64,000 bases of DNA from an uncultured Salinisphaerales bacterium (GCA_964535755.1 CAZHTI010000001.1:20720-84719); one strand, 5' to 3'; shown: positions 6,085 to 51,200, counted from the stretch's first letter. Numbers and translations are program-made. Notes: generated from the sequence alone by a model not told the origin.

Positions 6085-6170
6085 GCTGGGTTCAGCCTAG
6101 GGCATTTTGTGCACTGCACCATTGCCAACAGATGACGGATAATCACCGCAACTTTCTCGAATCTCACCCT

Positions 6171-19186: not shown

Positions 19187-19220
19187 CGAATAAGTGTGGC
19201 ACAAACCGCATAATGCTCGG

Positions 19221-19781
19221 ATGAAAATCCTGCTCGACTTAGTCCCCTTTATTGCATTCCTCGGCACTTGGAGCCAATTCGGCATCTACCCAGCGACCGC
19301 CGTGCTGATCATCACGCTCTGGATCGCCGTGGTGCTGGACTACTTCTTCGTCGGCAAGAAGCGCAACAACATGATGCTCGGCACTGCCGCCATCGCCACG
19401 GTGTTCGGCGTGTTGACACTGGTGCTGCGCAACGCGCTGTTCATCCACATCAAACCGACGGTGATTTTCGGCCTACAGGGTCTGGTGTTCTTAGGCAGCC
19501 ACTTCATCGGCGACAAGGTCATCTTGCAGCGCCTGATGGGCGCGCAAATCCCGATGCCGGAGGCGCAGTGGCGCCGCCTGAGCTTGGCTTGGGTTGCCTA
19601 TTCGTTCCTGATGGCCGCCATCAACCTCTACACCGCGCTGTTCTGCAGCGAGGAAGTCTGGGCCTGGACGCTGGGTGCGATCAAAATCAGTTTCATCCCC
19701 TTCCTCATCGCCCACTACCCCTTCGTCGCGCCGTATTTGCAGGATGCAGCGGCCAAGGACGCCGCGGAGCGCAAGAGCTAG
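19221..19781 (+). CDS. yciB: Intracellular septation protein A (YciB/IspZ)
   Basis: ATG at 19221. MKILLDLVPFIAFLGTW N-terminus and five hydrophobic helices typical of YciB. Followed by yciI- and bolA-like genes. Confidence 0.85.
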   Translation: MKILLDLVPFIAFLGTWSQFGIYPATAVLIITLWIAVVLDYFFVGKKRNNMMLGTAAIATVFGVLTLVLRNALFIHIKPTVIFGLQGLVFLGSHFIGDKVILQRLMGAQIPMPEAQWRRLSLAWVAYSFLMAAINLYTALFCSEEVWAWTLGAIKISFIPFLIAHYPFVAPYLQDAAAKDAAERKS

Positions 19782-27912: not shown

Positions 27913-28024
27913 GGCGCTCGTGGCTCGGCAGGGCAATGTGGGTGCGGACGTCGCGGTACAAATGCAGGCGCGGGATTATCAGGGATTCCCTAGCCCATCG
28001 CGCGGCAGATGCGTGCCAGAAGCG

Positions 28025-29416: not shown

Positions 29417-29530
29417 TTGCGGGCTCTCCAATGCCCCGGCAGGCCGCGTCTCCAGTGCCGTAGGCTAAAATGTTGCAGTGCAGCGATTCCTGAAGATGTA
29501 CGCCATCGATCAGGCCCTGCGCTGAACTGA

Positions 29531-31515: not shown

Positions 31516-31713
31516 ACGCGGCAAACCATTGCTTCTAGCTCTAGGCGCTGTGGGCCCCGCAAGCGGTACTGATTCGCCCGACTTCCCGACCTAGCTCGGC
31601 ATCGCTGTCGCTCAAGATTGCCGGTTGCGGAGCCCATCATTGCCGCCGTAATGCAGCCGGAACCACCGTCGCGGCGCGCTGCTCTAAGCCCTTCCTCCAT
31701 CGCCAGCTCGCCC

Positions 31714-33655: not shown

Positions 33656-35377
33656 CTAGGGGGCTTTGGTGCAGAGCGTGAAGCTGCCGGTGCCTGCATA
33701 CGAGGCCACGCGCCAGCGGTAGGTCTGCCTGGACGAGCCGGAGGCATAGTTGATGCTCTCGGAGGAGGTAGCCGTCTCTGAGGCCGCTACCTGCGACCAA
33801 GAGCCGTTGTTAGCGCGGCGCTGCAAGTAGAGGTCAAAGTCAGTCCCAGTAGGGCCTGCGAGTGTCGCGAGCAGTGAGCCGTTAGCACTTGGGCGGAAGC
33901 CAGTGGTGTTCGGCGCGTAGAGGTTCTGGCCGGTTGCGGTGAAATTGCCGGTGTAGGTGGTGTACCCCGTTGGGCAAGCACCCGTGCCGCCGCCACCTGA
34001 TCCACCACCAACGGCGGCTGCTGCAGCAATGGCTGCGGGCGCATCCGCGATACCAGTACCGCACTGACTGCAAGTGGCGGGGAAGGCGCGTGCGGAGGAC
34101 TTTAGTGATGCCTCGACTTGGTCAGGGGTGATCGTTGGCTTGACGGCGTACATCAAGGCAGCGACACCGGCGATGTGCGGTGCGGCCATGCTGGTGCCTT
34201 GAGAGAACCCGTAGCTATCCGCCGCAGGCACCGTAGTGCCAGCGTTGTAGGTGGAGAGCACGCCGTTAGGGTCAGTGCTGCTAGTCATTGACCCACCGGG
34301 TGCTGCGATATCGACAATGCTGCCGAAGTTCGAGTACGGCGCTTTCCCGCCGGAGCGATTGACCGCCGCCACTACGACCACGCCGGAGCAGCTCGCAGGG
34401 CTCTGCGTCGAGGCGTCTTTGTTGGCGTTGCCCGCCGTCACCACCACCGTCGTGCCACGGCTACGCGCCGAGTTAATGGCGGCTTGGCTGGTGGCATCGC
34501 AGGAGCCGGAGCCGCCCAAGCTCATGTTGATCACTTTGGCCGGGTTAGCATTTGCGGGCACGCCGCTGACCGTGCCGCCCGAAGCCCAGATGATGCCGTC
34601 GGCGATATCACTGGTGTAGCCGCCGCAACGGCCTAGGACGCGCACCGGCACGACCTTCGCCCCGTAGGCCACGCCAGCAACACCCGAGCCATTGTTGGTT
34701 ACCGCCGCGACGGTGCCGGCCACATGGGTGCCGTGCCAGCTGGAGTTTCTCGCCGCGCTCCCCGTGCCGCATTGCCCTGCGGTCGTCCAGTCGCCCGGGT
34801 CCTGCGCATCGGAATCTCGGCCATTGCCATCGTTACCGACCGTCGCGTCAGAAATCATGTCGTAACCACCAACGATATTGCCGACCAAGTCCGCATGGGG
34901 GCGATAGCCGGTGTCGAGTACCGCAACAACCACCCCACTACCGGTGGTGGTGTCCCATGCCGTATCGGCGCGGATGCCGCCGGCCGGCTCGAAGTAATGC
35001 CACTGCTCGTTGTAGCGGCTGTCGTTCGGCGTGGCGTCGGCTTGCAAGACGCGGTCTTCCTCAACGTACTCGACCTGCGGATCTGCGGCGATAGCCGCTA
35101 AGTAGCCACGCATCGCCGCCGCATCTAAGCGTTTATCGAGCGCCACGAGCTCTGCGCCGGTACCGAGCGTGCGCATAAACGCGGCGTTCAAGCCATGCGC
35201 GCGGCCTGCATGATCAATCGCGGCAGTGCGGCCCTTGCCGCGCAACTCAGCTGCCGCGCTGGCAGATTTATATTTGACGATCACCCGCTGCTGCAGGCCC
35301 AGCGCAGAAACCGTTTGGGCAAAGCAGAGTGCAGCAAGCGCAAGCGCAAGTCGACGCATTTGGGGGGCAGCAGTCAT
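33656..35377 (-). CDS. Secreted S8 (subtilisin-like) serine protease with pre-peptidase C-terminal (PPC) domain
   Basis: Signal peptide (MRRLALALAALCFAQTVSA) and inhibitor-I9-like propeptide. Catalytic triad contexts VAVLDTGY, HGTHVAGT, GTSMAAPH. C-terminal DFDLYLQ PPC-type domain. Start is 35377 or 35359. Confidence 0.9.
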   Translation of the reverse strand: MTAAPQMRRLALALAALCFAQTVSALGLQQRVIVKYKSASAAAELRGKGRTAAIDHAGRAHGLNAAFMRTLGTGAELVALDKRLDAAAMRGYLAAIAADPQVEYVEEDRVLQADATPNDSRYNEQWHYFEPAGGIRADTAWDTTTGSGVVVAVLDTGYRPHADLVGNIVGGYDMISDATVGNDGNGRDSDAQDPGDWTTAGQCGTGSAARNSSWHGTHVAGTVAAVTNNGSGVAGVAYGAKVVPVRVLGRCGGYTSDIADGIIWASGGTVSGVPANANPAKVINMSLGGSGSCDATSQAAINSARSRGTTVVVTAGNANKDASTQSPASCSGVVVVAAVNRSGGKAPYSNFGSIVDIAAPGGSMTSSTDPNGVLSTYNAGTTVPAADSYGFSQGTSMAAPHIAGVAALMYAVKPTITPDQVEASLKSSARAFPATCSQCGTGIADAPAAIAAAAAVGGGSGGGGTGACPTGYTTYTGNFTATGQNLYAPNTTGFRPSANGSLLATLAGPTGTDFDLYLQRRANNGSWSQVAASETATSSESINYASGSSRQTYRWRVASYAGTGSFTLCTKAP

Positions 35378-35484: not shown

Positions 35485-36795
35485 CTACTTGATCCCTGAC
35501 ATCAGCGCATTGAGTGCTCGGTGATATTCCTGCATTGGGAAGGCATCAGCAGATCGGGCAGCGGCATACAGGGCGTCGATGGCAGCACGCCCCGCGGGGG
35601 AGATCGGTGCACCTTGCGCAGCCAAGGCGTTGGCGAATACCACCGACGCCATCGCGGCTTGTTGTGCGGTCGCAAAATCCCCCGCCCGCGCGCCTCGGCT
35701 TGCGCTGCTGAGACTTTGCAGCATCTGCCGCAGTTGCGTCGCACTGGGCGTTTGTTGCTGCATGCGCGGCAGCACATCCCCGCGCAATTGCTGCAAGAGC
35801 GCTGCTGCTTGCGCCTTTAGGGCTGTCGGCGAGGTTTGTGCAGCCGTCTGCAACTGAGCCACCTGCTGCTGCCATAACCGGCCACGCTCTGGGGCCACTG
35901 CGTGCAGCCACAGCCCAAGCCAATGGAGGTGGGTGTCTGCGAGCGGCACAGCGCCAATCGCCGCAGCGCCATTACGGCCCAGCATCGCCCGTCCTGCACC
36001 CATGGCGTGATGACAGGCGGCACAGTCAAAGTGCACGAGCTCAGGAAACACTCCTTGCTGGAAGCGGCCCTCGGCGAGCCCCTCCAGGTACATCTTGGCG
36101 GCGGCACCCTGCCCGATTTGCCAATCCAACATCCCGCTCTGCCCGCCTTTACGGCGCTGGTAGTCGGCATCGCGGTCGTAATGCGGTGGCTGAAGGCTGG
36201 TGAAGGTGTCCAACTCAAACAGTAAGGGCGGATGCCCTGCGGCCATCATCGCGTGGGTAATTGGCCGCTCAGCATTGCCTTGGTGGCAGCTCAGGCAGAG
36301 CTGTGCGCGCTCAGCACCGCGCCAAGTCGGGAACATCCCCATGCGCTCCTTCTCAGCCAGCGAGAGACCTGGGCGCGTGTGCTCTTTGAGCCAGTTCTGC
36401 GCGCCGCCGTGGCAGGTCTCACAGCCGATGCCGTCGCTGGTTTGGAATTTCGCACCACGCAAATTCTGTGGAACCGACTCGGTATGGCAGGACAAGCAAG
36501 CGCGATCCGTCTGCGGGCTAATGCCGAGTGCTTGGCCGATCTTCCGAGAGCGCTCGGAGCCCAGCGTTGCAAAGGCTTTGCCGTGCACGTCTTGGGTTTG
36601 CCAGATGAAGTATTCGTCCCCGCGAATACCGCTTTCACCGAAGGGGACGGTCGCTGCGTGGCAGGTGCCGCCAGCACAGCTAGCCACACCTTCATGGATG
36701 GCGTCTGCGACGGCCGTAGCGGATGCAATCAGCAGGAGTAAACCCGCCCAGCATGGCGACCACTTAGAGGCTGTGCGCTGCTCTCGTTTCGACAT
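35485..36795 (-). CDS. Periplasmic multihaem c-type cytochrome (4 CXXCH + 1 CX4CH) with haem-free helical C-terminal half
   Basis: ATG at 36795 with GGGAG upstream and a signal peptide (WSPCWAGLLLLIASATAVADA). Motifs CAGGTCH, CLSCH, CETCH, CLSCH, CAACH. The last ~170 aa are Ala/Gln/Leu-rich without Cys. Confidence 0.8.
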   Translation of the reverse strand: MSKREQRTASKWSPCWAGLLLLIASATAVADAIHEGVASCAGGTCHAATVPFGESGIRGDEYFIWQTQDVHGKAFATLGSERSRKIGQALGISPQTDRACLSCHTESVPQNLRGAKFQTSDGIGCETCHGGAQNWLKEHTRPGLSLAEKERMGMFPTWRGAERAQLCLSCHQGNAERPITHAMMAAGHPPLLFELDTFTSLQPPHYDRDADYQRRKGGQSGMLDWQIGQGAAAKMYLEGLAEGRFQQGVFPELVHFDCAACHHAMGAGRAMLGRNGAAAIGAVPLADTHLHWLGLWLHAVAPERGRLWQQQVAQLQTAAQTSPTALKAQAAALLQQLRGDVLPRMQQQTPSATQLRQMLQSLSSASRGARAGDFATAQQAAMASVVFANALAAQGAPISPAGRAAIDALYAAARSADAFPMQEYHRALNALMSGIK

Positions 36796-36933
36796 TTCAA
36801 ACTCCCTTTGCGTCTGTATTCGTGTCCGCGTCACAGTTTATGTGCTCAAGCGCTCGCTAGTCCTTGCACTACGCTGAACCGCACTCTAGGCTGATACTCA
36901 AGAAGCCTCAAGACTGACAGGGAGTGTGGGGGC

Positions 36934-39333
36934 ATGGGCACATCTGCAAAAGTTGCCGTCGTAGGTTCAGGGCCAGCCGGCTTGGCTGCCGCAGCGCGGT
37001 GCGCGGAGCTAAAAATCCCGCATATTTTGTTTGAGGCGGAAGGCCACCTCTCCAACACGATCTATCGGTATCAAAAGGGCAAGCACGTGATGGCGGAGCC
37101 TGTGGTGCTGCCGCTGCGGGCATCGCTGGGCTTCGAGGCCGGCAAGCGCGAGGCGATTCTCAGCACATGGGATGCGGGCGCAAAAAAGCTCGGTATCAAT
37201 GTGCTCCACCGCACGGAAGTGACCGAGATCTCCGGCAGCGATGGTCACTTCACGCTCACCACGGCGCTTGGTGAGATTTACACCGCTGAGAAGGTGGTGC
37301 TCGCCATCGGCTTGCAGGGCAACATCCGCAAGCTCGGCTGTGAGGGCGAAGATTTAGAGGCAGTCCAGTACACCCTGGATGACCCCGACGAATTTACGAA
37401 TGAAGCGATCGTCGTTATCGGCGCAGGCGATGCCGCGATCGAAAATGCCGTGGCGCTGTCCGGCCGCAATCGGGTCACCATCGTCAATCGTCGGGATGAA
37501 TTCGACCGCGCCAAGGAAGGCAATAACAGCCTGATTCTCAAGGCGATTGACGATGGCCGCGTGGCGGTAGTGCGCAATGCCGGGGTAGGCAAAGTAGCGA
37601 TGCGCGACGCCCGCAGCGCGGTGATCACGTTGACCACGCCCAACGGTGATTTGGACCTCGACTGCAATCGCGTAATCGCCCGCCTCGGTGCTACGCCGCC
37701 GCGCAAGTTTGTAGAGGCGATGGGCGTGCAGTTCCCCAGCAAAGACCCAAGCTCGGTGCCGGCGGTATCTGCCACGTACGAGAGCAACGTCAAAGGCCTC
37801 TACATCATCGGCGCGCTGGCGGGTTTCCCGCTGATTAAGCAGGCGATGAACCAAGGGTATGAAGTCGTTGAGTTCATCGAAGGCCGCAACCCCGAGCCCG
37901 CGGACACCCCATTGCTGCGCAAGAAGTTTGAGTCCATGCCCGGCTTTCGCTCGGTCGATGCGACCATCGATCGCATCAAGCAGGGCATCCCAGTGTTGAG
38001 CCCGCTCACGCCCCTACAGTTGCGGGAGTTTTTGCTCGACTCCGACATTCGCACGCCCAAGGCCGGCGCGGTGATCTTCAGCCGCAACGACTACTCCGAC
38101 ACCTTCTTTTCGGTGCTGGAGGGTAGCGTCAGCATCGCCATTGACCCCAACGATGACAGCAAGCGCATCAGCCTAGGCGCGGGGCAGTTCTTCGGGGAGA
38201 TGAGCCTGATCTCTGGCCGCAGGCGCTCGGCGACGGTCTATGCCGGTGAACGCGCTGTGCTGGTAGAGACTCCCCGCCGTTCGATGAACAAGTTGATCGC
38301 GAGTGTGGCTGCGGTGAAGCGCGTGTTGGACGAGACCTACCTGTCTCGGGCGATCCAGTCACAGATTGCACCGAATCTGTCCGGCGATTTGCTGAAGGAG
38401 GTCGTGACCTCTGCGACCATCCAAAAATACAAAGCGGGCGAGGTCTTGTTCCGCGAGGGCGAAGCTGCCGACGGCCTGCATATGATCCGCAAGGGCTCGG
38501 TCACCGTGGCGCGCAACATCGGTGGCCGCGAGGCCATCCTCGCTTATGTGCCGGCCGGGCAGTACGTCGGTGAGATGGCCTTGATGACCGAGCAGCCGCG
38601 CAGTGCGACGGTTAAAGCGGCCATCGCCACCGAGACCATTCGCCTCGACGGTGCGGTGTTCAAATCGGTGCTGGCGCGCGACGAAACCCTGCGTGGTCAC
38701 CTCACTGCACTTGCTAAACAGCGGATTGCCGCCAATGCCCGGGTGCGTAGCGACGAAACCGCCAACGGCAATCTGGTGTCGTTTTTGATGAATCAAGGCT
38801 TGGGCGAGGCGACCGACGTCCTGCTCATCGACGAGAGCCTCTGCGTGCGCTGCGACCACTGCGAAAAAGCCTGCGCAGACACCCACGGCGGCCTCTCGCG
38901 GCTAGACCGCGAAGCAGGCCCCAGCTTTGGCTCGCTGCACATCCCCACCAGTTGCCGCCACTGCGAGCATCCGCACTGCATGAAGGACTGTCCGCCGGAT
39001 GCCATCCACCGCTCACCCGGCGGTGAGGTCTTCATTAGTGACGCCTGCATCGGCTGCGGCAACTGCGAGCGCAACTGCCCTTACGGCGTCATCCACATGG
39101 GGGTGACGAGCAAGAAGCAACCCAGCCTCTGGCAATGGCTGATGTTCGGCGGCAAGGAGCCCGGCAATTACGAGGTGCAGTACGACAAAAAGACGGCGGC
39201 GAAAAAAGCCACCAAGTGCGATATGTGCAGGGACCTCCCACAAGGGCCAGCCTGTGTACGCGCCTGCCCAACCGGTGCGGCGATTCGTGTTAGCCCTGAG
39301 AAGTTCATGCGCATCTCCCAGGGTGCTGCCTAA
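36934..39333 (+). CDS. FAD/NAD(P)H pyridine-nucleotide-disulfide-type oxidoreductase fused to two cNMP-binding domains and a four-cluster [4Fe-4S] ferredoxin module
   Basis: 799 aa, AGGGAG upstream of the ATG. GxGxxG motifs VAVVGSGPAGLAAA and VVIGAGDAAIENA. cNMP motifs FFGEMSLISGRRRSATVYA (aa ~355-465) and YVGEMALMTEQPRSATVKA (aa ~475-600). Cys motifs CVRCDHCEKAC, CRHCEHPHCMKDCP, CIGCGNCERNCP, CDMCx8CVRACP (aa 637-778). Confidence 0.85.
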   Translation: MGTSAKVAVVGSGPAGLAAAARCAELKIPHILFEAEGHLSNTIYRYQKGKHVMAEPVVLPLRASLGFEAGKREAILSTWDAGAKKLGINVLHRTEVTEISGSDGHFTLTTALGEIYTAEKVVLAIGLQGNIRKLGCEGEDLEAVQYTLDDPDEFTNEAIVVIGAGDAAIENAVALSGRNRVTIVNRRDEFDRAKEGNNSLILKAIDDGRVAVVRNAGVGKVAMRDARSAVITLTTPNGDLDLDCNRVIARLGATPPRKFVEAMGVQFPSKDPSSVPAVSATYESNVKGLYIIGALAGFPLIKQAMNQGYEVVEFIEGRNPEPADTPLLRKKFESMPGFRSVDATIDRIKQGIPVLSPLTPLQLREFLLDSDIRTPKAGAVIFSRNDYSDTFFSVLEGSVSIAIDPNDDSKRISLGAGQFFGEMSLISGRRRSATVYAGERAVLVETPRRSMNKLIASVAAVKRVLDETYLSRAIQSQIAPNLSGDLLKEVVTSATIQKYKAGEVLFREGEAADGLHMIRKGSVTVARNIGGREAILAYVPAGQYVGEMALMTEQPRSATVKAAIATETIRLDGAVFKSVLARDETLRGHLTALAKQRIAANARVRSDETANGNLVSFLMNQGLGEATDVLLIDESLCVRCDHCEKACADTHGGLSRLDREAGPSFGSLHIPTSCRHCEHPHCMKDCPPDAIHRSPGGEVFISDACIGCGNCERNCPYGVIHMGVTSKKQPSLWQWLMFGGKEPGNYEVQYDKKTAAKKATKCDMCRDLPQGPACVRACPTGAAIRVSPEKFMRISQGAA

Positions 39334-39356
39334 GACACGAGCACGGAGCCGCAGAT

Positions 39357-40319
39357 ATGTCATCCACCACCGCCTCCAAGTCACCTAAACGCGAGCAATC
39401 GCACAGTGGGTTTTTGCTACATGCCGGACTGCGCTGGGCCAAAGTCGCCGTGTTGCTCTGCATCGCAAGCCTCATCGCCTACATCTGGCACGAGCCAGCT
39501 GATGGCCCCAATGGCGGCACTTGGCTCGGCTACACCTTGGGCGGCTTGGGTGCCTTCCTCATTCTCTGGCTGACCTGGCTGGGCGTGCGCAAGCGCAAAT
39601 ATTCTGGCGGCACTGCGACGGTGAAGGCTTGGACCAGCGCCCACGTTTACTTAGGCCTCTCGCTCATCGTCATTGCCACGTTGCATTGCGGATTCCAGTA
39701 CGGCTGGAATATCCACACGCTCGCCTATGTATTGATGATGTTAGTGATTGCCTCTGGCATTTACGGCATCGTCGTCTATACCCGCCTGCCAGACGCCGTG
39801 ACGCGCCTGCGCGATGGCAACACCCGCGAGGCTTGGATCGATGAGGTGTTTGAGCTCAACCTGCAAAGCGTCAAACTCGCCGACAAAATCGGCCCAGAAG
39901 TGCACCGCAGAATTGTCAGCTCGGTCGAGAAGGTCAGGATCGGCGGCGGTTTGCTGGCGCAGCTCTATGGCAAACCACAATCGGGTGGCGTGCTTGAGGA
40001 CCTCAATCAAGCACTGAAGGATCGGGTGCGTGAGATCAAAGCGCAGACGCCCAGCTTCAACCCGAGTTCTACCGCACAAAGCACCGTGGTGTTTATGGCG
40101 GGGCAAATGACCGCGCTGGATAAATCCGAGGCCGAGGCTGCCCGTCTTCAACAGTTGCTAGATATGGTCGCGCGGCGCAACAGCCTGGTCGCTCGGATCA
40201 ATAAGGACATTGCCCTGCACGCACGCTTGCAGGTGTGGCTGCTCGTGCACGTCCCCCTTACGTTCGCGCTGTTGGCGGCGCTGATCGCGCATGTGTTTAG
40301 CGTCTTCTTCTACTGGTGA
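39357..40319 (+). CDS. 5-TM membrane protein with two His pairs spaced 14 residues (candidate di-haem b electron carrier)
   Basis: 320 aa, five hydrophobic helices. H96/H110 lie in one helix (AHVYLGLSLIVIATLH) and H298/H312 in the last (HVPLTFALLAALIAH). A ~140-aa soluble helical insert precedes the last TM. No family recognised by eye. Confidence 0.65.
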   Translation: MSSTTASKSPKREQSHSGFLLHAGLRWAKVAVLLCIASLIAYIWHEPADGPNGGTWLGYTLGGLGAFLILWLTWLGVRKRKYSGGTATVKAWTSAHVYLGLSLIVIATLHCGFQYGWNIHTLAYVLMMLVIASGIYGIVVYTRLPDAVTRLRDGNTREAWIDEVFELNLQSVKLADKIGPEVHRRIVSSVEKVRIGGGLLAQLYGKPQSGGVLEDLNQALKDRVREIKAQTPSFNPSSTAQSTVVFMAGQMTALDKSEAEAARLQQLLDMVARRNSLVARINKDIALHARLQVWLLVHVPLTFALLAALIAHVFSVFFYW

Positions 40320-40376
40320 GGGCAGCCGCGCTATGACCCGCACCGCTCACGTCTCGCCGCCCAGCAAGGCCACGCC

Positions 40377-42230
40377 ATGAAGATTCTCCTCCGCTCGCAG
40401 ACGGCTGATGGCGCGTTACAGGGCGATCAATGGCTGAATGTCCCCACCTTGCGCATCGGCCGCGACGCCGCCCAAGACATCGTGTTGGCCGATTTCCACG
40501 TCGCCCTAAAGCATGCGGAGATCAACCTCAAGCCTGCATTCTTAGGCTTGGGCAGCACCTTGCGCATCGAGAGCCGTTCCAAGTTGCCGGTGTACGTCAA
40601 TGGCGTGCCGGTACATGGTGCGGATTTGTCACTGGGCGATGAAATCCGCTTGGGCAGGTTTAGCTTGCAGGTTGCCAAGCCACAGGCATCCGCCGACGGC
40701 ACTCTGGTGCTCAAGGAAAGCTACGAGGCGCACGACGAGCGCGATGCACAGAAAGCAGGATTAAAGACCACCCTAAGGGCCGCCGGTTGGTCACGTCGGT
40801 CTATGGCATGGCTGCTGTTCATCGTGGTGTTGATCCCAGCGCTGTTGATTCCGGTTTTTTTGCACCTACAGACGCTCGAAGCAGCGCCCCCTGAAGCCCA
40901 GAAGGTCGACCGTGAATACCGTGCGCAAAAGGTGATGGGTTGGGATATCGCTTGGAATTCTGGGCCTATGTCCTCGGCGCACAAGCAGTTAGCCAACGAC
41001 TGTACGGTTTGCCATCAACAACCGTTCCAACAAGTGACGGATGCCAGCTGCAAGGGCTGCCATGCTGAAGTTGGGGAGCACGCAGCCACGGTGGTCACCC
41101 TGCAACACAGCAGCTTTGCCGATCTCAACTGCACCGACTGCCACCGCGAGCACAACGGCGGTGGCGGTGCGGCTGGCGCATCCTCAGGGCACGGCATCAT
41201 TCCGCTGCAAAATCAGTCCTGTACGGATTGCCACGCAGCGCCTGAAGGCCTGCCGGGCAAACAAGTTTTGGCGGTGAGCACTTGGAGCAAAGACCACCCG
41301 CAGTTTTCTATCCAGTTAGCCCGATACGACGCCAACAAAAGCGCATTCGTCTGGAAGGAGTTCCGCCAAGGCACCGCAGACGCGCTGCGGCAGGACACCG
41401 GCATCAAGTACCCGCACGATATCCACCTCGACCCCAAGGGTATTGATGCACCCGGTGGGCGTAAGGTGCTGGAGTGCGTGGACTGCCACCAACTGGCCGA
41501 TGACGGCGTGCAGTTCAAGCCAATTGCCATGGAACCCCATTGCGGCGAATGTCATCGCTTGGACTTTGACCCCGCCGCAAAAGCCCGTGAGCTGCCGCAT
41601 GGCAAGCCTGCGGAGGTGGTGCAAGTCGTCCGTGACCACTATGCCCGCGTCGCACTCGCGGGTGGCGTTACTGAAAAGGGCGCTCCGGCGATCGTGACTA
41701 GCCGCCGCGCACCCGGGCAATCCTTAAGCCCTGCACTCGCCAAGGCCGCACTGCAATGGGCGGATGCACGCGCAGACGTCGCCCTGCGCGATGTCTTTGA
41801 GCGCCGTACCTGCAACTACTGCCACGAGGTGACGAAGCAAAGCGGCGACGCCACAGCACCTTGGCAGATCGCTCCGGTTGCACCGGTGCAGCGGACGATG
41901 AACAGCAGCGTCTTCCCCCACCAAGCGCATGCGACGGAAACCTGCGAAAGCTGCCACGACGTCAGCAAGTCCAAGAAATCTGAAGACGTGCACCTGCCCA
42001 AGATCGAACAATGCCGCGACTGCCACGGCGATACCGGCGCGATGACTGAAGTCGAAGCGGCCTGCCAGACCTGCCACGTGTACCACCTCAATGACTTGAC
42101 TCCCGCCGGGTCTAGCAGCAATTCGGCCAAACCCACTTTGCCCGCGGCGCACCCGGCGATACCCGCTGCCAAGCCCTCTAGCGAGCTCAATACCGTCAAG
42201 CCATCGGCACTACCGGAGCAGAAGTCATGA
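40377..42230 (+). CDS. FHA domain - single TM - decahaem c-type cytochrome
   Basis: 617 aa. The N-terminal ~100 aa are FHA-like (LRIGRDAAQDIVLADFHVALKHAEI...VYVNGVPV...GDEIRLGRFSL). TM helix MAWLLFIVVLIPALLIPVFL. Ten CXXCH motifs follow (CTVCH, CKGCH, CTDCH, CTDCH, CVDCH, CGECH, CNYCH, CESCH, CRDCH, CQTCH). Confidence 0.85.
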   Translation: MKILLRSQTADGALQGDQWLNVPTLRIGRDAAQDIVLADFHVALKHAEINLKPAFLGLGSTLRIESRSKLPVYVNGVPVHGADLSLGDEIRLGRFSLQVAKPQASADGTLVLKESYEAHDERDAQKAGLKTTLRAAGWSRRSMAWLLFIVVLIPALLIPVFLHLQTLEAAPPEAQKVDREYRAQKVMGWDIAWNSGPMSSAHKQLANDCTVCHQQPFQQVTDASCKGCHAEVGEHAATVVTLQHSSFADLNCTDCHREHNGGGGAAGASSGHGIIPLQNQSCTDCHAAPEGLPGKQVLAVSTWSKDHPQFSIQLARYDANKSAFVWKEFRQGTADALRQDTGIKYPHDIHLDPKGIDAPGGRKVLECVDCHQLADDGVQFKPIAMEPHCGECHRLDFDPAAKARELPHGKPAEVVQVVRDHYARVALAGGVTEKGAPAIVTSRRAPGQSLSPALAKAALQWADARADVALRDVFERRTCNYCHEVTKQSGDATAPWQIAPVAPVQRTMNSSVFPHQAHATETCESCHDVSKSKKSEDVHLPKIEQCRDCHGDTGAMTEVEAACQTCHVYHLNDLTPAGSSSNSAKPTLPAAHPAIPAAKPSSELNTVKPSALPEQKS

Positions 42231-44170
42231 GCTTGCGCGCACGCTTTTTCGCGCTGATGACCGCCGCCGTGCTCAGTGCCTGTGGCGGTGGTGGCGGCAC
42301 GAGCCCATGCGATGGCTCTTGCGGCGAGGCCACACCGGTGCGCTTGGAGATCAGCGAGGTTGAGCGGGTGCTCAGCTCGGCGATTGCGGAAGCGCAGGCC
42401 CGTAACGCCGCAGCGACCATCGCGGTAGTGGATCGCGTCGGCAATGTGCTCGCGGTGTACCGCATGCAGGGGGCGGACATCAGCATCGAAGCGCGCACTG
42501 GGTTACCGGTTGAGGGCGGGCTGGAGGGCGTCAACGTCATCCCCGATGGCTTGGTTGCCATCGCCAAGGCGGTGACCGGCGCATTTTTATCGACCGAGGG
42601 CAATGCCTTTACCACCCGAACGGCCAACCAAATCGTGCAAGACCACTTCAATGTCGGCGAGCGCGACCAACCCTCCGGGCCCTTGTTCGGCGTGCAGTTT
42701 TCCTCGCTGGCCTGCTCTGATCTCAACCTACCGTTTGCCGGTAGTCGGCCAACCGTCGGTCCGCAGCGCAGCCCCTTGGGGCTTGGGGCCGACCCCGGGG
42801 GCTTCCCGCTCTACAAGGGCGGCGTGTTGGTCGGTGGCATCGGTGCCGTTGCCGATGGCACCTACGGTGCCGACCTCAACATTAGCGACACCGACCAAGA
42901 CTTGGACGAGTTGATCGCACTGGCCGCCACACGCGGCTTTGAGCCACCTGAGGATCGTCGCGCCGACCGCATCACGGTCGATGCCAAAACCCTGCGCTAC
43001 AGCGACGCCAAACCCTCCGACCTGCGCAGCACCACGGTGCCCGTCTTTAACGCGCTGCCGGCAAATACCGGCGCGCTCATCAGCGTGCGCGGGTATATGG
43101 CGTCAGGCGACACCGCAATCCGCCGTGGCACCAGCTTTGGCCGCCCAGAATCTGGGATTCGTCCGGCCGGCCTCGCAGCTTTTGCGCAACATGATGGCTT
43201 TGTGTTGGTGGATGCCGCCAACCTAGAGCGCTTCCCTCCCCGTGCTGGAGCGGATGCCGCAACGATCGGCGCGAGCAACATACTCAATGCCTCTGAGGTC
43301 ACCACGATCTTGGAAGAAGCACTCAAGCTCGCCAACCGCGAGCGCGCGCAAATCCGCCGCCCCTTGGGTAGCCAGAGCCGCGTCACGATTTCCGTGGTCG
43401 ACACCTTCGGCAGCGTGCTCGGTATTGTTCGCACCCGCGATGCGCCGGTATTCGGCACCGATGTGTCCTTACAAAAGGCGCGCAGCGTGGCGTTTTTCAG
43501 CAATCGAGAAGCCGCCTCAGATTTGGCCTCTACCCCCAACACCACCTACCTAGGCAACAACCAAACCGTCAGCATTGCCGCCTATGTGCCTGCACTGAGG
43601 GATTTCTTAGGCCAGCCCAGCGCGCTGGCAGACGGGGCCTTTGCCTATGGCAACCGCAGCATCGGCAACGTCGCACGGCCATTTTTCCCGGATGGCATCG
43701 ACAACGCCCCGCACGGCCCCTTGTCCAAGCCGCGCGGCGAGTGGAGCCCGTTCTCAACCGGCCTACAGCTCGACCTCGTCAACAGCGCGATCTTGCAGCA
43801 TGTGGTGTTTGTCCTCGGCGGCGGCAACGATGTGGAACCGGGCACATGCACACAAATGCCCGCGACATCCACCGGGCGCAATCGGCTCGCCAATGGTTTG
43901 CAAATTTTTGCCGGCGGCGTTCCCATCTACCGGGGCACCCAGCTTGTCGGTGCCATTGGGATTTCCGGCGACGGTATCGACCAAGACGATTTGGTCGCCT
44001 TCTTGGGTGTTCATAACGCTGGGCAACGGTTGGGCGGCGCGTTGGGCAATGCGCCCAAAGAAATGCGCGCGGACACCATCAACAAAGATGGCAACTTCCT
44101 GCGCTATGTGCAGTGCCCGCAAGCGCCGTTTTTGGACACGGACGAACAAAATGTCTGCGCCGGAAAATAA
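42227..44170 (+). CDS. Lipoprotein with two GlcG/HbpS-like (PF03928-type, haem-binding/DUF336) domains carrying long insertions
   Basis: ATGA overlap with the upstream gene. Lipobox LSAC followed by a Gly-run. Domain 1: IAVVDRVGNVLAVYRM ... GGFPLYKGGVLVGGIG. Domain 2: ISVVDTFGSVLGIVRTRDA...SLQKARSVAFFS ... FAGGVPIYRGTQLVGAIGISGDGIDQDD. Confidence 0.7.
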   Translation: MSLRARFFALMTAAVLSACGGGGGTSPCDGSCGEATPVRLEISEVERVLSSAIAEAQARNAAATIAVVDRVGNVLAVYRMQGADISIEARTGLPVEGGLEGVNVIPDGLVAIAKAVTGAFLSTEGNAFTTRTANQIVQDHFNVGERDQPSGPLFGVQFSSLACSDLNLPFAGSRPTVGPQRSPLGLGADPGGFPLYKGGVLVGGIGAVADGTYGADLNISDTDQDLDELIALAATRGFEPPEDRRADRITVDAKTLRYSDAKPSDLRSTTVPVFNALPANTGALISVRGYMASGDTAIRRGTSFGRPESGIRPAGLAAFAQHDGFVLVDAANLERFPPRAGADAATIGASNILNASEVTTILEEALKLANRERAQIRRPLGSQSRVTISVVDTFGSVLGIVRTRDAPVFGTDVSLQKARSVAFFSNREAASDLASTPNTTYLGNNQTVSIAAYVPALRDFLGQPSALADGAFAYGNRSIGNVARPFFPDGIDNAPHGPLSKPRGEWSPFSTGLQLDLVNSAILQHVVFVLGGGNDVEPGTCTQMPATSTGRNRLANGLQIFAGGVPIYRGTQLVGAIGISGDGIDQDDLVAFLGVHNAGQRLGGALGNAPKEMRADTINKDGNFLRYVQCPQAPFLDTDEQNVCAGK

Positions 44171-46301
44171 TCGCCCGCTGCGCCGCCACGCCTTGGCGCT
44201 CGCGGCCGCGCTATTGGCACAACCGAGTGCAATTGCGCTGCCGAGCTTGGCGGAGCTCAAGGCGGATGGCCAAGCGCTCTCTGCTGCCGCCACCGCGAAG
44301 AGCGCCGCGGCGGCTCAGCAGCCCGCGGAGCAGCCAGCGAGCAAGTCGGCCCAAGCTCATGTCACCGCGCAGCCTCCCGCAGGGAGTCCCGCGAAGCCAC
44401 CTCCAGTCGCAATAGCCTCTGCGGCTAAACGGCATGAGCAGGTCGTCGCACCTGCGCCGAGTTCCGAGTTCTTCTACCGCGCTGGCGAAGCTGCTGATGC
44501 CCACCGGGTGGCCGCCCCTCCTGCGGCCACGTCGCCCCGCCCTAGCCTCAAACAGCTCAGCACGCCGACAACGCCTGCTAGCGCAGACACCGCGTTGGCA
44601 GCAGCCCCAGTCGCTCTGCCCCAGCGGCGGCCAGATCGCAGCGTGCAATATCGAGCAATCCCCAGTGCGGAAGCAGTCGACCCGAACGCTGCGACCGGCA
44701 TCCCCAAACTCGCGCCGCAAGAGGTCCGCAGCCCCACCATCGGCGCACCGGTGCCAGACCGTTGGCGCTTGGTGAATGACTTGGGCCTGCTCAAAGAAAA
44801 CCCGCTCGACCCCTATAACCAGAACACACTGAAGGGCGATAAACCCATCCGTGGCGACGACGAGTTTTTAATTCTCTCGGCCATTGCCGACAGCATCTGG
44901 GAACCACGCCGTGTGCCCACACCGGTGAGCCCGCAGAGCACGACGCGGCCGGGTAGCGTGGATATCTTCGGCGGTAGCACACAGAACGTACTGGCCACCA
45001 GCATCATCGTGCCGATCATTTATTTGAAGGGCGACACCGCGTTTAAACCGCCAGATTACGAGCTGCACTTCACGCCCGCCTTCAACTTTAATCACGTCCA
45101 AGTGGAGGAGAACCGCGCGCTACGCATCAGCCCCGGCGAGAGCCGCACGCGGCGCGAGACCTTCATCGGCGTGCAGGAATTGTTCGCCGACTATCACCTG
45201 CGCAATGTCTCGGACCGCTACGATTTCGACTCCATTCGCGTCGGCATCCAGCCGATTTCCTTAGATTTTCGCGGCTTCCTGTTCCAAGACCTGCCGATGT
45301 CGGTGCGCTTGTTCGGCACCCGCGACAACAACTACTGGCAGTACAACATTCTCTGGGCCCGCCGCTTAGAGAAGGACACCAACAGCCTGCTCAACAGCAT
45401 CAACCAGAAGCTGCGGGATGACGACGTTTTCGCGGTCAACCTGTTCCGGCAAGATTGGCCGGTGGTCGGCTTCACCACCCAAGGCATCGTCGCCCACAAC
45501 GTCAATCGAGAAGGCCAAGAGGTTTACTACAACCGCAATGGCTTCATCGAGCGGCCCGGCTCCTTCGGCTTAGAAAAAGGCCGGAACTACCAAGTGACGT
45601 ATCTAGGCCTCAATGGCGACGGCCACTTTGGCCGCACCAACCTCACCGCTGCGGCCTATTTGGCCGTTGGGCGTGAATCCCGTGGCGCGTTTATCGACCG
45701 CCCACGCGAGGTTTTTGCGGGCTTTGCCGCCGCCGAAGCCTCTTGGGATTTCGACTGGACTCGGCTGCGCGTTTCTGGCCTCTATGCCAGCGGCGACCCA
45801 GACCCATTCGACGATACCGCGAATGGCTACGACGCCATCAACGAGCTACCGCTGATTGCCGGTGCTGACACCAGCTACCACATCCGCCAGAGCATCCCGC
45901 TGATCGGCGGCGGCGGCGTTGCGCTGACCACCCGCAACGGCGTACTCAACAACCTGCGCACCAGCATCCAGCACGGGCAGAGCAACTTTGCCAACCCAGG
46001 AACCGTCATCTTGGGCGTGGGGACCGACTTTGACTTGAGCCCGACCTTCCGCCTGAGCACCAATGTGAACCACGTCCGGTTTGCCGACTCAACGGTGCTG
46101 GAAGTTGCGCGCAACCAAGGCAATATCTCGGAAGAACTCGGCTGGGATGTATCGGTCGCCAGTATCTGGCGGCCGTTTATGACCCAGAACATCGTCATCC
46201 GAGTGTCCTACGCAGAGATGTTGCCCGGCAAAGGCTTTAAGCAGTTATTCCCCGATCAACGGGGTTATTCGATGTTGGCCAATCTGGTGTTTACGTATTA
46301 G
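44151..46301 (+). CDS. Putative outer-membrane beta-barrel protein with Ala/Pro-rich N-terminal linker
   Basis: ATG at 44151 (M171 of the track ORF) gives signal peptide MSAPENNRPLRRHALALAAALLAQPSAIA. aa ~30-200 are low-complexity Ala/Pro/Ser/Gln. The remaining ~510 aa have alternating beta-strand-like patterning and end in NLVFTY (aromatic terminal residue typical of OMPs). Overlaps the upstream gene by 20 nt. Confidence 0.65.
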   Translation: MSAPENNRPLRRHALALAAALLAQPSAIALPSLAELKADGQALSAAATAKSAAAAQQPAEQPASKSAQAHVTAQPPAGSPAKPPPVAIASAAKRHEQVVAPAPSSEFFYRAGEAADAHRVAAPPAATSPRPSLKQLSTPTTPASADTALAAAPVALPQRRPDRSVQYRAIPSAEAVDPNAATGIPKLAPQEVRSPTIGAPVPDRWRLVNDLGLLKENPLDPYNQNTLKGDKPIRGDDEFLILSAIADSIWEPRRVPTPVSPQSTTRPGSVDIFGGSTQNVLATSIIVPIIYLKGDTAFKPPDYELHFTPAFNFNHVQVEENRALRISPGESRTRRETFIGVQELFADYHLRNVSDRYDFDSIRVGIQPISLDFRGFLFQDLPMSVRLFGTRDNNYWQYNILWARRLEKDTNSLLNSINQKLRDDDVFAVNLFRQDWPVVGFTTQGIVAHNVNREGQEVYYNRNGFIERPGSFGLEKGRNYQVTYLGLNGDGHFGRTNLTAAAYLAVGRESRGAFIDRPREVFAGFAAAEASWDFDWTRLRVSGLYASGDPDPFDDTANGYDAINELPLIAGADTSYHIRQSIPLIGGGGVALTTRNGVLNNLRTSIQHGQSNFANPGTVILGVGTDFDLSPTFRLSTNVNHVRFADSTVLEVARNQGNISEELGWDVSVASIWRPFMTQNIVIRVSYAEMLPGKGFKQLFPDQRGYSMLANLVFTY

Positions 46302-46328
46302 CCACAGGACGTGGCAAGGGAGACGAAA

Positions 46329-47012
46329 ATGATGCCCAAATGGATGAGACGCGCAGGAGTTGCCGCGCTATTCGGCCTAACCAGCCTAGGTCTCAACGCC
46401 GCCGATCACGTCGATGCGCCCGGCACGGATACCGCCCCTGGTCGCAACCCACAAGTACTCGGAGCGGACATGGCCGATGTCTTCATCTTCCGCCGAGACG
46501 GTGCCTTAGTCGGTGGCATCACCTTTGCGGGCACCCCCGCACCTCGGTCTAGGGTCGATGGCAGCATCGGCAGCTACGACCCCGATGTGATCTACCTCTA
46601 CAACATCGACACCAACGCTGACGCGCGGCCAGAGTTCGTAGTGAAGATGCGCTTCGGCCGCAATGGTGCTGGTCAATGGGGCGTGGAGTTTGAAGACCTG
46701 CCCGGCGCAGGCACAAAGTATGTATTTGGCCCCGTGGAGACGGTACTGCGCTCACGCAACGGCTTGAAGGTATTTGCAGGCCGTAAGGATGACCCCTTCT
46801 TTTTTGACGTCCAAGGCTTCAACGCCACACTCGCCACTTTTGGTGATGACTCTGCACCCAACGGCACCTTGCAGTTCAATGGCAACCGCGATTCCTTCGG
46901 TAGCCGCAATCTCACGGCCCTCGTCTTCGAGATGGATCTCGTGACCATCGCCACCAGAGCACAAAACAATGAGTTGCGGGTTTGGGCCACCACTGAACGC
47001 CTGATGCGCTAG
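46329..47012 (+). CDS. Secreted DUF4331-family protein (N-terminal-half type)
   Basis: ATG at 46329 with AAGGGAG upstream and a signal peptide. Mature N-terminus AADHVDAPGTD, ADMADVFIF and VFAGRKDDPFFFD match DUF4331 hallmarks as I remember them. Confidence 0.7.
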   Translation: MMPKWMRRAGVAALFGLTSLGLNAADHVDAPGTDTAPGRNPQVLGADMADVFIFRRDGALVGGITFAGTPAPRSRVDGSIGSYDPDVIYLYNIDTNADARPEFVVKMRFGRNGAGQWGVEFEDLPGAGTKYVFGPVETVLRSRNGLKVFAGRKDDPFFFDVQGFNATLATFGDDSAPNGTLQFNGNRDSFGSRNLTALVFEMDLVTIATRAQNNELRVWATTERLMR

Positions 47013-47023
47013 GGAGCACTGCC

Positions 47024-47677
47024 ATGTCCAGACACAATTACTTGCGCAATTTCCTATTGATCGGCCTCGCGGCAGCCGCCTCCGCCTGCGGCGGCGGCGG
47101 CGGCGGTGGGGGTGGCAGCAGCGGCGGAAGTCCTAGCCCAGAAGACCCGCGCGGCCCAGATCCTTTCGTATTTTCCACAGCCCCGCTGACTTCCTACCAA
47201 CGCATTGACCGCATGGGCGGCCCGGTCACCGCCACCGTACTCTTGCTGACTCGCGACAAAGACCCGTTCAACGCGGCAGACCCGCTCAACGATGCGGACT
47301 TCGTTGGCAGGCAGGTCACGCAACTCACCAAGATTCATTATGAGTTGGGCGACGATCTACAAGCTGCCGGTTTGACGCTGTGTTCGCGCCACTCTGCGGA
47401 CATTAACCAAGTCGACGTCAGCAAATGCGTGTCGCAAGCCGCGCCCTTTATCGTGCCGGACGTGCTCCGCTTAAAACTGAGCGAGCCCGACGGCTACCCC
47501 AATGGCCGCGACTTCTCCACCTCGGTAGTCAACCGCTTACTTGCCTTTGCCTTGCTCGACCGCGCTGTGCATGACATCGATACCGTAAACCGCGCCGGCA
47601 TCATCAGCCCCGCAAATAATGACGTCAGTTACTCAGCTACCTTCCCTTACTTGGGCGATCCGCACCTAGCACCCTGA
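47024..47677 (+). CDS. Lipoprotein resembling the C-terminal half of DUF4331 proteins
   Basis: Lipobox ASAC plus a Gly/Ser linker. IDRMGGPVTATVLL..KDPFNAADP, YPNGRDFSTSVVNRLL and C-terminal FPYLGDPH resemble the distal DUF4331 motifs. Confidence 0.65.
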   Translation: MSRHNYLRNFLLIGLAAAASACGGGGGGGGGSSGGSPSPEDPRGPDPFVFSTAPLTSYQRIDRMGGPVTATVLLLTRDKDPFNAADPLNDADFVGRQVTQLTKIHYELGDDLQAAGLTLCSRHSADINQVDVSKCVSQAAPFIVPDVLRLKLSEPDGYPNGRDFSTSVVNRLLAFALLDRAVHDIDTVNRAGIISPANNDVSYSATFPYLGDPHLAP

Positions 47678-47695
47678 GGTTCGGCAGCACCACCG

Positions 47696-47722
47696 AAAAG
47701 CCCGCGAAAGCGGGCTTTTTTT
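47696..47722. terminator. Bidirectional rho-independent terminator (end of the redox cluster / end of rimO)
   Basis: aaaAGCCCGC-gaaa-GCGGGCTttttttt at 47699-47722, between convergent stops 47677 and 47751. Confidence 0.8.
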
Positions 47723-50946: not shown

Positions 50947-51200
50947 GGGAAGGGCTGATCAGCGACGGCAAAAGACGCGCCGCAGTATTGCGGCGAAGAC
51001 TAGAAACGCAAACCTGCTGAAAACAAAGACCGCCAGCACCAAACGCTTCGTCGGCTCAACTGCACCGATGGCGAAGGTAAATATTTACTTTTGCCGACAG
51101 ACTGCCTGCGGTTTGTTGAATCAACAGTCAGGTGTTGCCAGTATCGACGCCATTGATGGCCCAGCGGGGACATCCACATTAACGATTGGGGAATACGCCG

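Follow-up and report, generated by a model that had tools for sequence, protein, structure and literature searches.

Positions 35485 to 47677 of a 64,000-nucleotide (64-kb) stretch of DNA from an uncultured Salinisphaerales bacterium (GCA_964535755.1 CAZHTI010000001.1:20720-84719; the whole stretch is called the window here) carry one divergent gene on the minus strand (35485-36795) and seven co-directional genes on the plus strand (36934-47677), which we read, at about even chances, as an inner-membrane, NAD(P)H-fed electron-export module with periplasmic and outer-membrane accessories. The products of the first three plus-strand genes, i.e., a 799-aa flavin/iron-sulfur (flavo-FeS) protein with cyclic nucleotide-binding (cNMP) domains, a protein with five transmembrane helices (5-TM) and a membrane-anchored decahaem cytochrome c with a forkhead-associated (FHA) fold, plausibly form a transmembrane electron path. 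NAD(P)H, probably NADPH, would reduce the FAD of the 799-aa protein, from which electrons would pass to its four [4Fe-4S] clusters, cross the membrane via two bis-His b haems of the 5-TM subunit, enter the ten c haems of the transmembrane (TM)-anchored periplasmic cytochrome and finally reach either the product of the divergent gene, a proposed soluble pentahaem c554-like shuttle, or a final acceptor. The tandem cNMP domains, located between the flavin and Fe-S modules, would most likely act as a cAMP/cGMP-dependent conformational switch, making or breaking the link between FAD and the Fe-S clusters by a PKA-R-like rearrangement, and such a gate makes sense because outward flow would spend both NAD(P)H and membrane potential. 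With NAD(P)H at about -320 mV, electrons would run downhill via the Fe-S clusters to the haems with the membrane potential assisting, and inward transfer to NAD(P)+ is uphill on both counts; from these standard bioenergetics we infer that electrons probably flow outward. A sequence-only reading of the window had drawn a redox path running continuously across the whole cell envelope. The inner-membrane part of that path withstood our analysis: it comprises predicted flavin and Fe-S cofactors in the cytoplasm, a putative di-haem-b-type membrane protein and a TM-anchored decahaem cytochrome, with invariant Fe-S and haem ligands.

Profile annotation with Pfam and NCBIfam agreed with each domain call of the sequence-only reading. 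In the entry subunit, Pfam identified Pyr_redox_2/3, two cNMP_binding domains and 4Fe-4S diclusters, which are arranged as a FAD/NAD(P)H domain (residues ∼1-330), a tandem of cNMP domains (∼350-600) and a four-[4Fe-4S] module (∼630-795); together with NCBIfam matches and a motif count, this corroborates its description as an oxidoreductase fused to two cNMP domains and a 16-Cys, four-cluster ferredoxin. The flavin domain is nearest to YpdA/Bdr and TrxR-type ferredoxin-NADP reductases in NCBIfam and PDB matches. It has no redox CxxC and keeps a NRRDEF..R motif (Arg186 in 67 of 70 orthologues), which we take to resemble the HRRD site for the 2′-phosphate of NADPH in thioredoxin reductase. The donor to FAD is thus probably NAD(P)H, with NADPH favoured. 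The C-terminal module matches four-cluster HycB/HybA-type ferredoxins in the PDB, and its 16 Cys residues, organized in four CxxCxxCxxxC(P)-type groups, are all invariant in the 70 orthologues. Neither a signal nor a Tat motif was found in the 799-aa protein, which should therefore be cytoplasmic. A distant relative of the locus, L086, bears further on the electron donor. There, the layout is split as published for the ptd genes (described below), and the separate flavoprotein (6124-7296) is a membrane-anchored protein of the FNR type (FAD_binding_6 plus NAD_binding_1), non-homologous to the TrxR-like domain of the window; the cNMP/Fe-S, membrane, decahaem and c554-like proteins of L086 are 27 to 36% identical to those of the window. 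That this position is filled by either of two unrelated NAD(P)H-flavin modules argues for NAD(P)H as the redox partner in the cytoplasm.

The cNMP-binding family PF00027 scored 131 bits over two stretches of the 799-aa protein, above threshold, and the tandem domains aligned as a pair with PKA-R/PKG in the PDB. Their phosphate-binding-type cassettes, FGEMSLISGRRRSATV and VGEMALMTEQPRSATV, follow the pattern G-E...R-[ST]-A-T, whose Gly, Glu and Arg residues are invariant in 68 to 70 of the 70 orthologues. Genes for CHASE2-adenylate/guanylate cyclases adjoin the operon in ∼15 loci of different lineages, usually accompanied by genes for TPR and FecR-domain proteins (L005, L055, L062, L063, L066-L068, L071, L073, L075, L076, L083 and L086; the cyclase only in L017, L020 and L026), and L005 additionally has Crp and a metallophosphatase nearby. 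Given the invariant cassettes and the adjacent class III cyclases in ∼15 loci, control of the 799-aa protein by a cyclic nucleotide, either cAMP or cGMP, is plausible, which lends support to the earlier proposal that the cytoplasmic entry point is regulated in this way.

The membrane subunit has the five TM helices and the two His pairs spaced by 14 residues that had been noticed in its sequence. In the AlphaFold2 (AF2) model (predicted local distance difference test [pLDDT] score, 77.5), TM4 and TM5 are set apart by ∼140 aa of helical, cytoplasmic insert, and the positive-inside rule places the N-terminus inside. The pairs His96/His110 on TM3 and His298/His312 on TM5, both with i, i+14 spacing, are invariant in 81 of 81 orthologues, and so is His120. 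Their depth in the model suggests two pairs across the helices, His96 with His298 towards the cytoplasm and His110 with His312 towards the periplasm. No Pfam family matched the window protein above threshold; its score for PF01292, the family of prokaryotic cytochrome b561 and Ni-hydrogenase cytochrome b, was 14.6 bits (cut-off, 30.1). Weak matches to PF01292 nevertheless occurred in 40 of 45 relatives (best E value, 7e-7), and 20 of the 45 matched its clan-mate DUF4405. The 5-TM protein is thus plausibly related, at a distance, to the two-haem cytochromes b and is a putative bis-His di-haem cytochrome b. UniRef and the ptd paper label homologues of this protein "ferric reductase-like". Its assignment to the Ferric_reduct (NOX/FRE) domain was nonetheless discarded, because PF01794 did not match the window protein, which has five helices instead of six; PF01794 was likewise missing among the matches listed for the 45 relatives (25 of 41 families, E ≤ 1). 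Foldseek returned nothing significant for the whole model, with matches dominated by the long helical insert.

In the decahaem protein, an FHA domain (residues 1-100) and a TM helix (144-162) precede the haem c domain. The ten CXXCH motifs and ten distal His residues are invariant in ∼84 of 84 orthologues, which fits bis-His ligation. The FHA family PF00498 scored 37.7 bits (cut-off, 20.7) and the domain aligned to the FHA domains of GarA/OdhI (E value, 1.4e-6); the Cytochrome_C7 and c3_2 families and a YscD-type Pfam model also matched. The domains, TM helix and haem motifs attributed to this protein are therefore as described, but the gating by Ser/Thr kinases proposed along with them is doubtful, because residues of the phosphothreonine (pThr) site are missing family-wide. 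The site retains the GR and the His, with VALKHA in place of VSRRHA of GarA and RSKLPV in place of GSLNGT. Of 84 orthologues, only 4 keep the phosphate-contacting Ser, which is Ala in 60; Leu takes the following position in 72, and the Asn-Gly-Thr loop is absent. Canonical pThr binding is thus unlikely, and by analogy with YscD a role of this domain in docking or structure is more likely than one as a pThr reader. In L086, a Cys-rich cytoplasmic N-terminal region replaces the FHA fold (10001-11578). A gene for a 1437-aa Ser/Thr kinase-WD40 protein follows the decahaem gene in three Lysobacterales metagenome-assembled genomes (MAGs; L035 5793-10106, L040 13301-17620 and L051 13500-16751), and in L087 the last gene of the cluster encodes a PP2C phosphatase (18598-19377). 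These neighbours are weak hints of phospho-signalling despite the degenerate pThr site. The product of the divergent gene is, as read from its sequence, a multihaem protein with a signal peptide, four CXXCH motifs and one CX4CH motif (CAGGTCH). It matched Cytochrome_C554 with 42.7 bits, gave a weak PDB match to c554 of Nitrosomonas europaea, and consists of a c554-like N-terminal part and a helical C-terminal part; the five haem motifs and five further His residues are invariant in 37 orthologues. In Nevskiales this gene precedes the operon in divergent orientation; elsewhere it is found downstream, on the strand of the other genes. The motif count found no CXXCK in the cluster proteins.

To assess distribution, FHA-decahaem homologues were collected and one genome per species was scanned. 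A relative of the decahaem protein is encoded in 246 of 185,579 species genomes, the best match being only 52% identical. Carriers are mostly Gammaproteobacteria (Nevskiales, Lysobacterales, Steroidobacteraceae, Woeseiaceae, Ahniellaceae and Methylococcales), including Stagnimonas, Nevskia, Solimonas, Fontimonas thermophila DSM 23609 and Panacagrimonas perspica DSM 26377 among the Nevskiales. A profile search of 1.84 billion cluster representatives (50% identity) yielded 1943 clusters at E ≤ 1e-30, and nearly all of the best 150 are full-length matches that include the N-terminal domain. When all window proteins were compared by tblastn with 85 related loci, the order flavo-FeS, 5-TM, decahaem, HbpS-like lipoprotein and barrel recurred in ∼60, those with sufficient flanks, and the flavo-FeS gene accompanied the 5-TM and decahaem genes in every locus with enough flanking sequence. 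The pair of DUF4331 genes is confined to a Nevskiales-like subset of loci. The three-gene core stands alone, beside ccm genes, in the alphaproteobacterial loci L004 (Sandarakinorhabdus) and L005, and the outer genes are also missing from L086. Since gene order is conserved across orders of Gammaproteobacteria, more than chance holds the genes together, and comparative sequence evidence thus indicates that the cluster is a real conserved unit.

Most related loci hold one gene more than the window does. In ∼50 of them (L001 15475-19293; also in loci from L007 to L087), the barrel gene is followed by a gene for a 1272-aa protein that has ten CXXCH motifs behind a signal peptide and ends in a cell-surface-type LVIVD propeller. 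Copies from different orders are 58 to 90% identical to that of L001, so that this looks like the best-conserved member of the set, with the proviso that the reference (L001) differs from that behind the figures for the other members. ExtM is a protein of the selenite/tellurite operon of Geobacter; the 1272-aa protein matched it only locally (71.7 bits; cut-off, 800), and its match to Mtrc-MtrF_II-IV_dom reached 22 bits (cut-off, 30). In most genomes, this decahaem/LVIVD protein is likely the terminal redox component. The window lineage appears to carry a reduced version of the system, in which the cofactor ligands of the remaining genes are intact. Because the decahaem/LVIVD gene is missing, the chain here would end in the periplasm unless the gene lies elsewhere in the genome. 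The ∼7 kb upstream of the window start, read from the metagenome contig L088 (identical PEPCK gene), held nothing relevant. Two literature leads were dropped: the uet cluster of Tenderiales, considered for LVIVD, proved unrelated, and the domain in an Idiomarina paper considered for DUF336 was DUF3365.

The remaining plus-strand genes encode envelope proteins. The lipoprotein has the lipobox LSAC (Cys19, Gly at +2) and matched the HbpS-like family PF03928 with 78.2 bits (cut-off, 25); its two halves are homologous (self-BLAST E value, 2e-7), which bears out the two GlcG/HbpS-like domains predicted for it. EfgA/GlcG, PduO-C and NahX are its nearest solved relatives. Across 71 orthologues no His is conserved at ≥85%, and only Cys residues and Met80 are conserved; His-ligated haem binding is therefore unsupported, and non-His modes remain compatible. 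The large protein ending in NLVFTY has a signal peptide and was modelled by AF2 (pLDDT, 68.6) as a barrel, in agreement with the outer-membrane location suggested from its sequence. Foldseek ranked AlgE first (E value, 4e-16; TM-score, 0.63 to 0.67), followed by OprD/Occ and general porins. The 716-aa sequence matched no Pfam or NCBIfam family and contains neither Cys nor any invariant His, and its family comprises at least 5289 clusters. Residues 1-165 of the barrel protein (44151-44650) include a disordered Ala/Pro/Gln-rich stretch, ∼160 aa here and variable in length, which probably explains the public "FimV/HubP" or "LysM" labels of homologues. The start codon of this gene is uncertain, since its reading frame continues upstream without a stop as far as a TTG at 43641. 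A loop of ∼70 residues (∼547-617; 45789-46001), one of the best-conserved parts of the barrel, has more than 25 invariant positions at a pLDDT below 50 and may be a plug or ligand-binding element.

Two secreted DUF4331-like proteins had been proposed to end the unit. Both are found, with a refinement: the first gene product matched PF14224 with 48.5 bits over profile positions 159-236 and the second with 40.5 bits over positions 250-421, so that these adjoining ranges identify the two genes as halves of one domain split over two genes. Relatives with DUF4331 show the same two-gene split. DUF4331 has no PDB relative and no NCBIfam match, and a literature search gave no paper mentioning it. We propose that the lipoprotein and barrel, encoded by overlapping genes, and the split DUF4331 pair form an outer-membrane module, which, having no redox ligands and a channel-sized barrel, probably passes or presents a substrate or partner rather than conducting electrons. 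The continuous path across the envelope is thus not borne out, with an AlgE/OprD-like barrel, outer genes without haem ligands and the decahaem/LVIVD partner missing.

The composition of this module also raises the alternative that two functions are merely co-transcribed, the redox core being independent and the lipoprotein, barrel and DUF4331 proteins constituting an unrelated outer-membrane uptake or export channel. The loci with a core devoid of outer genes (L004, L005 and L086) are compatible with it, as are the typical substrate-channel fold of the barrel, the lack of redox ligands in the outer proteins and the limited occurrence of DUF4331. However, lipoprotein and barrel genes directly follow the decahaem gene in ∼60 loci from several orders, the lipoprotein gene overlaps the decahaem gene in the window, and the decahaem/LVIVD gene right after the barrel gene in ∼50 loci ties the outer genes to redox chemistry. 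We therefore regard independent functions as unlikely.

Several points weigh against an outward, NAD(P)H-fed chain. No PDB relative of the 5-TM protein was found by profile search or Foldseek, so that its binding of haem b is deduced from the His pattern and sub-threshold profiles. PF01292-type cytochromes b are normally quinone-reactive, so that the b subunit could instead exchange electrons with the quinone pool, in either direction. The orthologue alignments of the lipoprotein, barrel and DUF4331 proteins revealed no conserved His or Cys haem ligands, and tblastn found the 1272-aa decahaem/LVIVD gene neither in the 64-kb window nor in its closest relatives, L002 and L003; with outer genes devoid of redox ligands and the usual partner absent, the window points to no particular acceptor. 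The 64-kb window has no cyclase gene. Lastly, the family is present in Fe(II) oxidisers, namely Gallionellaceae and Ferrigenium.

The latter occurrence would suit inward uptake, in which electrons from periplasmic or extracellular donors such as Fe(II) would pass through the c haems, the decahaem protein and the b subunit to quinone, or further through Fe-S and FAD to NAD(P)+. Apart from the iron-oxidising Gallionellaceae (PMC10734462, Table 1), a Nitrosomonas MAG and the Mn-enrichment "Bacterium MnTg04" are among the carriers, Ferrigenium straubiae expresses the genes under all conditions tested (10.64898/2026.01.22.701106), and the b subunit resembles quinone-reactive PF01292 proteins. Yet most carriers are aerobic heterotrophs (Nevskiales, Lysobacterales and Steroidobacteraceae), and electrons bound for NAD(P)+ would have to climb in redox potential and against the membrane potential. 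Reduction of quinone, in turn, would need no NAD(P)H-flavin/four-cluster subunit; that subunit is nonetheless always present and, in L086, swapped for a non-homologous NAD(P)H flavoprotein. Inward uptake is accordingly given a low probability.

The same weak but consistent PF01292 matches would also suit a quinone-linked module, in which the b subunit and the decahaem protein work as a CbcL/CymA-like quinol dehydrogenase supplying periplasmic acceptors and the flavo-FeS/cNMP protein is regulatory or an auxiliary donor. A cytochrome b combined with a multihaem c protein anchored by one TM helix parallels known quinol oxidases (CbcL, CymA and NrfH), and the invariant His120 and Asn118 at the periplasmic end of TM4 might, speculatively, mark a quinol site. 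Against this arrangement speak the flavo-FeS gene, which is tightly linked to the other two (gaps of 23 and 57 nt) and present in every locus with enough flank, and the large conserved cytoplasmic insert of the b subunit, which suggests a dock for a cytoplasmic partner. We therefore hold it to be improbable, to a similar degree as inward uptake. A redox, haem or envelope-stress sensor, whose haems and clusters report redox state while the cNMP and FHA domains transmit the signal, is very improbable: signalling-type domains are present (cNMP, FHA and HbpS-like) and the HbpS of Streptomyces partners a two-component sensor (PMC3754957), but Pfam and NCBIfam identified no output domain (kinase, DNA-binding or cyclase) in any subunit, 15 c haems, 2 b haems, 4 clusters and FAD are far beyond any known sensor, the FHA fold lacks pThr-binding residues, and the HbpS-like domains have no conserved His, which also speaks against the haem-sensing alternative put forward in the sequence-only reading.

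Compared with known systems, the NAD(P)H-fed export module appears to be an uncharacterised variant that joins NOX-like transmembrane electron export to Tmc/CbcL-like cytochrome b/c modules. As in NOX/FRE and Fre-MsrQ, electrons would travel from NAD(P)H through a flavin and two stacked bis-His b haems to an acceptor outside, and two TM helices each carry a His pair. The window differs in the lack of PF01794, in having 5 instead of 6 TM helices and in a separate flavoprotein subunit of another fold (Pyr_redox_2/3 rather than FNR-type); its path adds four Fe-S clusters and cNMP domains, and the acceptor would be a 10-haem wire rather than O2, Fe(III) or MsrP. Tmc/Hmc of sulfate reducers likewise combine periplasmic multihaem c, membrane cytochrome b and cytoplasmic Fe-S proteins, and CbcL of Geobacter is a cytochrome b with a multihaem c domain. 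However, similarity to TmcA is confined to local haem motifs (24.4 bits; equivalog cut-off, 114), HmcB scored 33.2 bits (cut-off, 420), the cytoplasmic subunit of the window is an NAD(P)H flavoprotein and not an HdrD-like CCG protein, and the hosts are aerobes. MtrCAB, MtoAB and Pcc resemble the cluster in placing multihaem cytochromes beside an outer-membrane barrel, to which most relatives of the window add the large decahaem protein, with a probable surface location. Unlike MtrCAB, the window has an 18-strand AlgE-like barrel instead of the 26-strand MtrB sheath, and electrons would enter from NAD(P)H, not quinol. Scores for the MtrA/DmsE family TIGR03508 were 15.9 bits for the decahaem and 26.9 bits for the pentahaem protein (cut-off, 192.2), and no MtrC/OmcA-type surface multihaem lipoprotein was found in the window, where tblastn with the 1272-aa protein of relatives gave no match. 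A MtrCAB-type conduit was consequently rejected on the barrel, the MtrA/DmsE decahaem and the surface cytochrome alike.

The gene combination had been taken for an undescribed system, which is not quite so: its core was tabulated in 2023 and named ptdC-G in 2024 and "NHC" in 2026, in all cases without functional tests. In the first report, a pangenome of Gallionellaceae, 27 of 87 iron oxidisers are recorded as having a 10-haem "Forkhead-associated protein" (PMC10734462). A 2024 preprint describes ptdABCDEFG in the marine Alphaproteobacteria UBA11136 and proposes a porin-cytochrome role, with no function assigned (Elbon et al., bioRxiv 10.1101/2023.11.21.568154). By the published description, the FAD/NAD(P) oxidoreductase PtdC, the cNMP plus 4Fe-4S protein PtdE, the "ferric reductase-like" PtdF, the decahaem PtdG and the small multihaem PtdD have counterparts in the window, where, in contrast, a TrxR/YpdA-like flavin domain forms one polypeptide with the cNMP and Fe-S modules and the decahaem protein has an FHA fold. 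Also by description, the window is set apart by the HbpS-like/AlgE-like/DUF4331 module that replaces PtdA (pentahaem plus β-sandwich) and PtdB (porin). The 2026 preprint (bioRxiv 10.64898/2026.01.22.701106) is on Ferrigenium straubiae, whose "NHC" is an FHA-bearing cytochrome described as nonahaem and accompanied by a 5-TM and a 4Fe-4S protein; its authors state that FHA plus multihaem had not been reported before and favour inward flow from Fe(II) oxidases to quinone. NHC and the Gallionellaceae genes share with the window the three-gene core and the FHA/TM/multihaem fusion. No outer-membrane genes are described for NHC, and its authors report no redox motif in the 5-TM protein, whereas four invariant TM His residues and the PF01292/DUF4405 matches of the window family point to two b haems. 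The ptd, NHC and Gallionellaceae papers lack the HbpS-like/AlgE-like/DUF4331 module, the decahaem/LVIVD partner, the His pattern, the degenerate FHA site and the cyclase linkage.

Features of the cluster in the window, with strand and the evidence for each
Feature	Position	Strand	Evidence
Divergent pentahaem cytochrome, c554-like	35485-36795	-	Pfam Cytochrome_C554, signal peptide
Putative divergent promoter region of pentahaem gene and operon, 138 nt	36796-36933		Intergenic sequence
Flavo-FeS/cNMP entry subunit, 799 aa, predicted cytoplasmic	36934-39333	+	Pfam, NCBIfam, PDB matches
Five-TM subunit, putative di-haem b	39357-40319	+	Invariant His, AF2 model, sub-threshold PF01292/DUF4405
FHA fold + TM helix + periplasmic decahaem c, 617 aa	40377-42230	+	Pfam FHA, Cytochrome_C7, c3_2
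Outer-membrane-type lipoprotein, 647 aa, two GlcG/HbpS (DUF336) domains	42227-44170	+	PF03928, lipobox
Outer-membrane 18-strand AlgE-like beta-barrel, 716 aa	44151-46301	+	AF2 model, Foldseek
Secreted protein, N-terminal half of DUF4331	46329-47012	+	PF14224, signal peptide
Probable lipoprotein, C-terminal half of DUF4331	47024-47677	+	PF14224, ASAC + Gly-rich linker
Bidirectional intrinsic terminator, common to convergent rimO	47695-47721		Folding energy

Our map of open reading frames reproduced the eight genes of the sequence-only reading with their coordinates, spacings and overlaps. Gaps within the plus-strand set are 23, 57, 27 and 11 nt, and the overlaps are of 4 nt (42227-42230) and 20 nt (44151-44170). 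The strong terminator anticipated at the end of the unit is the hairpin AAAAGCCCGCGAAAGCGGGCTTTTTTT, with a folding energy of -22.6 kcal/mol (z = -5.8) that none of 200 shuffled sequences equalled. It had also been suggested that the gene at 33656-35377, a Peptidase_S8 by Pfam, belongs to the unit. The 107-nt gap between this and the pentahaem gene contains a weak terminator-like hairpin on the minus strand (35426-35407), and folding against shuffles detected no significant structure there (z = -0.19). The S8 protease and a neighbouring GH5 cellulase were nonetheless rejected as members, because a homologue stands beside the cluster in none of the 85 related loci; in the closest relative, an M6/InhA-like peptidase and feoAB occupy the position of the S8/GH5 genes. 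No Fur or FNR box was found in the divergent intergenic regions of 29 loci. The region of the window contains a partial CRP-like site, TCGTGTCCGCGTCACA, of which only the right half-site is perfect, and CRP-like GTG-N8-CAC palindromes occur in the divergent region of seven Nevskiales loci (L013, L014, L016, L017, L019, L020 and L026). As a shared regulatory motif this site was set aside as not robust, its carriers being largely close relatives and the window having the half-site only. The cluster is flanked by a secreted GH5 cellulase with CBM2 (31618-33561) and two secreted S8 subtilases (33656-35377 and 51186-53651), none of which is conserved with it. Further upstream, genes for a class I (Fe-S) fumarase (26377-27936) and a class II fumarase (28025-29431) lie side by side on the same strand and are followed by purB, with ribBA nearby.

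A more specific role can be offered tentatively, as possible but clearly less probable than the export module itself. The cluster might be a second messenger-gated, NADPH-driven "electron valve" of aerobic heterotrophs, functionally a prokaryotic counterpart of NOX with a 15-haem wire added, which on a cAMP/cGMP signal would discharge reductant to the periplasm and, where the decahaem/LVIVD protein is present, as in most carriers, through it to the cell surface. Such a valve could serve extracellular metal reduction, reactive-oxygen production or redox balancing. The lineage of the window would have lost the surface terminal and would work purely in the periplasm, with the GlcG/HbpS lipoprotein, the barrel and the DUF4331 proteins supplying a diffusible acceptor.

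The system is directly testable in cultured carriers (Fontimonas thermophila DSM 23609, Stagnimonas aquatica, Nevskia soli DSM 19509, Solimonas spp. and Panacagrimonas perspica DSM 26377), and the window copy, which lacks the decahaem/LVIVD gene, offers a natural comparison to separate the roles of the inner and outer modules. The family occurs in Gammaproteobacteria that are common in soil, fresh water and sediment and do not count as metal respirers. Should the cluster indeed be an outward, NAD(P)H-fed chain, it would constitute a new entry route to extracellular or periplasmic electron transfer, from the pyridine-nucleotide pool and not from quinol, and the first such chain with a built-in cyclic-nucleotide switch. 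It would then be relevant to what these genes do in Fe(II) oxidisers, which is debated, and to the unexplained extracellular reduction and superoxide production by aerobic heterotrophs.

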